Below, in pieces: positions 24,280 through 24,332 of a DNA stretch of 32,000 nt. A program made the position numbers and the translations under genes. The notes beneath the pieces were generated by a model. That model was given only the letters and a program-made list of their open reading frames with translations, had not been told where the DNA came from and did no database searches. Every line of letters begins with the position of its first letter. Within the stretch, counting starts at the first letter, position 1. The stretch spans positions 463,103-495,102 of the forward strand of contig DXJG01000002.1 of assembly GCA_019056805.1 (NCBI GenBank). The letters run 5' to 3'. The DNA comes from Candidatus Baldrarchaeota archaeon (GTDB lineage Archaea > Asgardarchaeota > Baldrarchaeia > Baldrarchaeales > DXJG01).

Positions 24280-24332
24280 GATGATGAGACTCGCATCGGC
24301 CGATGAAATGAGGTTAACGGTGGGCTTGCTGA
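24280..24332 (+). ncRNA. Box C/D 2'-O-methylation guide sRNA
   Basis: Box C ATGATGA 24281-24287; 12-nt guide GACTCGCATCGG; D' CCGA 24300-24303; degenerate C' (ATGAGG, about 24308); guide ...AACGGTGGGCTTG; box D CTGA 24329-24332. It is a GC-rich island in AT-rich intergenic DNA, and both guides are complementary to recalled conserved archaeal 16S segments. Confidence 0.82.

Follow-up and report, generated by a model that had tools for sequence, protein, structure and literature searches.

[quoted passage not shown] The host is an uncultured member of the Baldrarchaeota represented by a MAG (91% complete, 1.92-Mb assembly), and the element very probably represents a real, hitherto unannotated small guide RNA of this Asgard archaeon that would direct sugar methylation of 16S rRNA. 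The observations on which this interpretation is based comprise the box architecture of the element, its conservation and synteny, the protein machinery encoded by the genome and the complementarities to rRNA (Table 1).

Table 1. Coordinates of the element, its neighbours and related loci. Positions refer to the window unless preceded by a contig of the genome (C9, C10, C17).
Feature	Position	Strand	Remarks
Terminal stem, 5' half GGC	24277-24279	+	Read from the sequence; 3 bp with GUC 24333-24335
Box C, AUGAUGA	24281-24287	+	Invariant in three genomes
D' guide, GACUCGCAUCGG	24288-24299	+	12 nt in all three genomes; +5 base = A24295
D' guide core, ACUCGCAUC	24289-24297	+	Invariant in three genomes
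Box D', CCGA (CUGA variant)	24300-24303	+	Invariant in three genomes; the two preceding bases vary
D'-C' loop, 4 nt	24304-24307	+	Variable: UGAA, UGGA and UAAG in the three genomes
Box C', AUGAGGU	24308-24314	+	AUGAGG invariant in three genomes
D guide, 14 nt	24315-24328	+	12 nt in both orthologues; +5 base = G24324
D-guide 11 nt adjoining box D, CGGUGGGCUUG	24318-24328	+	Invariant
Box D, CUGA	24329-24332	+	Invariant in three genomes
Terminal stem, 3' half GUC	24333-24335	+	Read from the sequence
TATA-like A/T-rich element, CTAAAATTTTAAC	24240-24252	+	Approximately 28 nt 5' of box C; overlaps the stop codon of the upstream ORF
KaiC/GvpD-like P-loop ATPase, 468 aa	21841-23247	-	Pfam GvpD_P-loop 4e-13, KaiC 1e-10
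Upstream gene, 216-aa protein	23601-24251	+	No Pfam match; 66% identical in congeners
Downstream gene, HIT-family protein	24396-24893	-	82% identical in congeners
Further canonical box C/D sRNA candidate	C9:111940-111995	+	Strict motif scan
Further canonical box C/D sRNA candidate	C9:293934-293982	-	Strict motif scan
Further canonical box C/D sRNA candidate	C17:103751-103805	-	Strict motif scan
Nop-domain protein	C9:90344-91021		Directly before the fibrillarin gene
Fibrillarin	C9:91152-91832		
L7Ae family, first gene	C10:38007-38285		
L7Ae family, second gene	C9:24771-25043		

The sequence-only reading had placed a C / D' guide / D' / C' / D layout at 24280-24332, and this layout was recovered when the sequence was re-read, including the box order, a D' guide of 12 nt and A24295 as the fifth base 5' of box D'. 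The element carries the terminal C and D boxes, the internal D' and C' boxes and the spacers of approximately 12 nt by which box C/D sRNAs are recognised. The presence of a C' box was likewise upheld, although it is best read as AUGAGGU (24308-24314) and not as the UGAUGA-like word further 5'. This reading was preferred because both words are invariant and because, beyond the tandem G.A pairs, base pairing is possible between the GG of AUGAGG and the CC of the D' box CCGA. Following the rules for k-turns and k-loops, the GA of box C' and the GA of box D' would form sheared pairs and the C' GG would pair with the D' CC; CCGA and AUGAGG are variants of the consensus, in which a G-C/G-C combination could replace the U.U and G-C pairs, and a k-loop would be expected to form. 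At the termini, the sequence can be read as a canonical k-turn composed of the 3-bp GGC/GUC stem and a 3-nt bulge (G-A-U) starting at G24280; conservation of this stem was looked for in the two orthologues described below and was not found. The MFE fold of the element, which is not significantly stable (z = -1.7), is dominated by a perfect 7-bp complement between GAGACUC (24286-24292) and GAGUCUC (24331-24337), which would make both box D and the first part of the D' guide inaccessible. This pairing was rejected as a functional fold because it lacks significance and the orthologues do not have it.

Two strict motif scans of the 1.92-Mb genome recovered, between them, the element and three other candidates (Table 1), with a count of zero in locally shuffled genomes. 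At gathering thresholds, no Rfam match was obtained anywhere in the window. A permissive Rfam scan of 301 nt yielded eight matches, all of them full-length, on the plus strand and to archaeal CD-box families, and all below gathering, the best being sR20 (RF01140; 22.9 bits against a threshold of 44, E 0.009) and sR1 (RF01152; 19.4 bits against a threshold of 45, E 0.0055). Since these scores fall short of the gathering thresholds, the element is not regarded as a member of the narrow Sulfolobus-type sR1 and sR20 families, with which it shares class only. The D guide of the Rfam sR20 family (ACGGUGG) was considered as a counterpart and discarded, as its similarity is partial and implies a different target.

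In a BLAST comparison with relatives, two out of three genomes of the genus yielded the element (85% identity), and both orthologues are syntenic, being flanked by the same two genes (for protein identities see Table 1). In an alignment of the whole intergenic region of the three genomes, the element is the sole conserved island between flanks that cannot be aligned. The three genomes agree completely in box C, ACUCGCAUC, CCGAU, AUGAGG and CGGUGGGCUUGCUGA. Differences are seen in the loop, at the first base of the guide and the two that precede D', and towards the 5' end of the D spacer, where a 2-nt indel that distinguishes the orthologues falls in the non-pairing part. This matches the pattern expected of a guide RNA, in which the boxes bind protein and the guide cores pair with a conserved target. 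A sequence-only covariance model built from the three orthologues was used to search 150 Asgard genomes, in which it identified the copies within the genus and one plausible relative in the same order (in genome G004, discussed below), and no orthologue outside the order. Matches of this model in genomes G007 and G086 possess similar D' guides and were rejected, as these fit their own 16S rRNA at neither of the sites considered below; the G007 match furthermore lacks C' and D boxes. A reading in which the element is not an RNA gene, and is instead a box-like motif that arose by chance or a site between convergent genes that binds protein or serves termination, would be compatible with the non-significant fold and with Rfam scores that are without exception below threshold. 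Such a reading is considered exceedingly improbable in view of a conservation that follows the box and guide pattern exactly in three genomes within unalignable flanks, of the zero motif count in shuffled genomes, and of the uniform strand, length and family type of the eight Rfam matches.

The element is located in a 144-nt gap between two convergent genes, its GC content is 52-55% compared to 35.5% for the genome, and no ORF of at least 40 aa overlaps it. An A/T-rich word of the form TAAAA(A)TTT(A/T)A (TAAAATTT-like) is present 23-28 nt 5' of box C in all three genomes and represents a possible TATA box or promoter of the element's own, although the A/T richness of the genome makes such a word weak evidence. 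Among species-representative genomes, the downstream HIT-family protein has its closest relatives outside the genus mostly in bacterial MAGs (Zixibacteria, Dehalococcoidales, Armatimonadota; 60-67% identity), an affinity that could reflect either strong conservation or transfer.

Searches of the host genome with 16S and 23S rRNA models returned no match, and the target analysis was based on the rRNA sequences of relatives. The end of the 4.4-kb contig C5 (C5:4413-4439) corresponds to the first 27 nt of the host's own 16S rRNA gene; upstream on the same contig, tRNA genes were called by aragorn (as Val, His and Ala). The last 400 nt of C5 lead to the orthologous locus of a congener (G001:C228), with 93% identity that includes the non-rRNA upstream part, and this contig, which contains CUAAGCCAUGCGAGUC, runs into nt 1-385 of the 16S rRNA gene before it ends. 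A 385-nt 5' fragment of 16S rRNA, likewise at a contig end, is present in the same-order genome G004 (G004:C78) and is 94% identical to that of G001; neither fragment was reported by the genome search with RF01959. The 3' 800 nt of 16S rRNA were taken from G004 only, and BLAST analysis of this order-level 3' half against four genomes of the genus gave no match. The full 23S rRNA was taken from a further congener (G003). In G003:C116, the 347 nt examined upstream of the 23S rRNA gene consist of A/T-rich non-rRNA sequence and not of a 16S rRNA gene, and the rRNA genes of the genus may therefore be unlinked; in G004, the 16S and 23S rRNA genes are linked by a spacer of approximately 190 nt. When metagenomes were scanned with a 33-mer specific to one helix of the G004 16S rRNA, two contigs of the same organism with the same breakpoint were retrieved, which lack the 5' domain. 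Additionally, comparison of Logan contigs from four DNA runs of the source samples, which are not assignable to this organism, with the phylum-level 16S 5' region revealed no well-supported alternative letters at the target (1548-1559) among the differences listed, and no conclusion is based on this comparison.

With these sequences, the D' guide forms nine consecutive Watson-Crick (WC) pairs with AUGCGAGUC (nt 52-60) of the same-genus 16S rRNA of G001 through guide positions 4-12, leaving positions 1 and 3 unpaired. Under the +5 rule, A24295 faces U52 in the numbering of the genus, which corresponds to E. coli U56 and aligns with U52 of Sulfolobus acidocaldarius. The sequence-only reading had assigned the D' guide to the equivalent of Sulfolobus U52, and both the same-genus pairing and the register of Sac-sR1 bear this out; its proposal that both guides pair with the organism's 16S rRNA held on the sequences of relatives, for the D' guide on nt 1-385 of the congener and for the D guide on the order-level 16S rRNA. 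A guide is expected to form at least nine consecutive WC pairs that include the +5 position (Dennis et al. 2015, PMC4644070), and the D' guide reaches nine on the same-genus 16S rRNA and only eight in the two orthologues. Among shuffled D' guides, 8.8% attained nine WC pairs including +5 on the 5.2 kb of closest rRNA (p ~0.09).

The same site is a predicted target of published guides, since the sequences before the D box of Sac-sR1 of S. acidocaldarius (AACUCCCAUGGU|CUGA), IHOsR92 of Ignicoccus hospitalis (AACUCCCAUGGA|CCGA) and PCAsR18 of Pyrobaculum calidifontis (AAAUCGCAUGGA|CUGA) (PMC4644070) contain the core (A)CUC(G/C)CAU in the register observed here. With the same core in the same register, the +5 A would face the same U of GCCAUG(C/G)GAGUC in all three and in the present element; for Sac-sR1, counting on the S. 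acidocaldarius 16S rRNA printed in Additional files 1 and 4 of PMC4644070 places +5 at U52. Like the element, these are dual-guide C/D sRNAs of 50-60 nt, although in each of them the U52 guide is the D guide rather than the D' guide and the partner guides are directed elsewhere. The Thermoproteota guides additionally base-pair to the GCC that precedes the site (through GG at positions 2-3), whereas the duplex proposed here reaches further 3' in the target. The link to Sac-sR1 is one of a shared target and not of a demonstrated orthologue. IHOsR157, which contains CUCGCAU, was dismissed as a counterpart on account of its different register. Among 300 other Asgard genomes, a search for the canonical U52 guide (CUCGCAUGG, one base, YYGA) gave eight matches against five for the reversed control, none of which was sRNA-like. 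On the basis of the pairing and of these parallels, 16S U52 is most likely the target of the D' guide.

A second site for the D' guide, ACGAUGCGGGCU, fits all three orthologues and would imply that the guide acts on, or also on, the equivalent of E. coli U820 in AAACGAUGCGGGCU, in the 5' flank of helix 26. As the D guide would bind the 3' strand of that helix approximately 55 nt away, the sRNA would then be a classical 'double guide' that chaperones helix 26. The U820 duplex comprises 9 bp here (eight WC and one G.U) and 8 bp in the orthologues, and includes the conserved C at guide position 3 that is left unpaired at U52. Only 2% of shuffled D' guides match in this way at a distance of at most 100 nt from the D target, and the U820 site and the D target covary as strands of one helix across Asgard 16S rRNAs. 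Approximately half of archaeal sRNAs are double guides, for which relaxed pairing is accepted (PMC4644070), and IHOsR205 targets the G adjoining the U820 equivalent. The duplex energies are equal for the U820 and U52 sites (-16.0 versus -17.5 kcal/mol here; -13.5 versus -11.9 kcal/mol in the orthologues). The U820 duplex, however, contains a G.U pair, reaches fewer than nine consecutive WC pairs and leaves guide positions 11-12 unpaired despite the invariance of position 11; furthermore, it relies on order- and phylum-level 16S rRNA, and the exact U820-equivalent nucleotide was not found as a target among the published guides examined. The U820 site is accordingly viewed as a serious alternative or additional candidate target, and action of the D' guide in this manner appears possible, if somewhat doubtful.

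The D guide and the same-order 16S rRNA of G004 (UAAGCCCGCCG / AAGCCCGCCG) can form 11 bp (nine WC and two G.U) in all three orthologues, in the order G.U, six WC, U.G, three WC, such that the longest WC runs are six and three. The fifth base 5' of box D, G24324, faces the first C of the target, which is located just before CCUGGGGAG. It had been predicted from the sequence that the D guide pairs with AAGCCC(A/G)CCG and directs methylation of its first C, and on the G004 16S rRNA the +5 position falls precisely on this residue. For the D guide, the likeliest target is the first C of AAGCCCGCC, a residue on the 3' strand of helix 26 that is equivalent to E. coli U875. Shuffled D guides reached 11 bp with nine WC pairs in 8.6% of cases on the 5.2 kb of closest rRNA (p ~0.09).

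A published guide to the same position is the D guide of Methanopyrus kandleri MKAsR32 (GGCGGACUUC|CCGA), which pairs with AAGUCCGCC of its own 16S rRNA (PMC4644070, Additional file 1) and whose +5 base faces the nucleotide after AAG, the same position at which GGUGGGCUUG|CUGA is predicted to act in the present element. In M. kandleri this base is a U instead of the C seen here, and the two sRNAs are without sequence homology beyond the boxes and this guide. The other guide of MKAsR32, as read from the printed sequence, is complementary to ACAAGGCUGAAC just 3' of the site rather than to the U52 or U820 region, while the D' guide of MKAsR91 targets the G adjoining the MKAsR32 site (PMC4644070).

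An alternative site for the D guide, AAGGCCCGCCGU, lies in 23S rRNA domain I of the congener and also fits all three orthologues; it would place the target at C352 of the same-genus 23S rRNA (G003) in GGAAAGGCCCGCCGUAGAGG and not in 16S helix 26. This duplex comprises 11 bp here (nine WC and two G.U) and 10 bp in the orthologues, is formed on the sole same-genus rRNA available for the D guide, and has an energy of -21.2 kcal/mol versus -20.3 kcal/mol for the 16S site. It requires guide position 12, however, which is variable among the orthologues, and it mismatches position 1 even though G-U-U at positions 1-3 is invariant, so that the invariant 3' end is partly unpaired; moreover, the G004 sRNA, which has the same guide core, shows no comparable match on its own 23S rRNA. 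A 23S target is therefore judged unlikely.

The G004 sRNA (C57:790-849, minus strand) was matched by the covariance model with an E value of only 0.0026. It has in common with the element a CCGA D' box, the final 7 nt (GCAUCGG) of the D' spacer and the D core GGUGGGCUU followed by CUGA, and among the rRNAs of its own genome it likewise matches the 16S helix 26 site best. The D' guide of the G004 sRNA deviates at two core positions and best matches 16S helix 18 (CUGGUGCCAGCC, 10 bp), which is neither of the D' sites proposed here; in addition, its loop is longer and it is not syntenic with the genes of the window. This sRNA may illustrate how guides drift in a single sRNA lineage.

Complementarity alone is weak support for either of the two 16S targets. 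U52 and the U875 equivalent are retained as the likeliest because both match, in register, the targets of unrelated published guides and because they fit the invariant parts of the guides best. The sRNA could be real and one or both of its guides nevertheless orphan, or aimed at a tRNA, an mRNA or another RNA, in which case the rRNA matches would be due to chance. This is in keeping with the shuffling result for each guide (p ~0.09) and with the one third of archaeal sRNAs that are without a significant rRNA target (PMC4644070), and the tRNA set extracted with aragorn is incomplete. Set against this, both best rRNA matches coincide in register with nucleotides predicted as targets for unrelated archaeal sRNAs, the parts of the two guides that pair are the invariant ones, and no tRNA duplex of nine WC pairs was seen in the incomplete aragorn set; orphan or non-rRNA guides thus seem decidedly improbable.

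The genome encodes Nop5, fibrillarin and two L7Ae-family proteins, all of which score above the Pfam cut-offs (Table 1). From the established archaeal C/D RNP model, L7Ae would be expected to bind the C/D k-turn and the C'/D' k-loop, upon which Nop5 and fibrillarin would assemble on the L7Ae-bound RNA. Each guide would then pair with nascent 16S rRNA, and fibrillarin would 2'-O-methylate the nucleotide opposite the fifth guide base 5' of D' or D. We infer in this manner that the element is transcribed, assembled into an RNP and engaged in methylation. As an extension of this scheme, the invariant 9-nt D' core might serve U52 and the 5' flank of helix 26 at once, such that the sRNP would temporarily connect the 5' domain of nascent 16S rRNA with the central domain as a folding chaperone of dual specificity, and U52 methylation would be ancient and common to Asgard archaea and Thermoproteota; this proposal is speculative and quite unlikely to hold.

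To our knowledge, box C/D guide RNAs are missing from the automatic annotation of Asgard MAGs. In the literature library that was searched, no paper describing Asgard box C/D sRNAs was found. The present analysis adds one well-supported guide for the Baldrarchaeota, a little-studied Asgard class, and suggests that an Asgard lineage likewise possesses guides for two 16S methylation sites known as predictions from Thermoproteota and Methanopyrus, namely Sulfolobus U52 and the E. coli U875 equivalent. A target common with the Thermoproteota had been anticipated by the sequence-only reading, and the agreement of the U52 register with Sac-sR1, IHOsR92 and PCAsR18 is consistent with that expectation. 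Information of this kind helps to reconstruct which rRNA modifications were present in the archaeal ancestor of eukaryotes. No concept is changed, as the machinery, architecture and targets are all of a known kind and the element corresponds to a standard archaeal dual-guide box C/D sRNA.

As a minor observation on the rRNA genes of this assembly, the end of contig C6 and the start of contig C9 were found to carry the same GC-rich stretch, CCGUGUUCGGAAUGGGAACGG, which resembles a portion of a minus-strand 5S rRNA gene; the shared stretch suggests that the two contigs adjoin.
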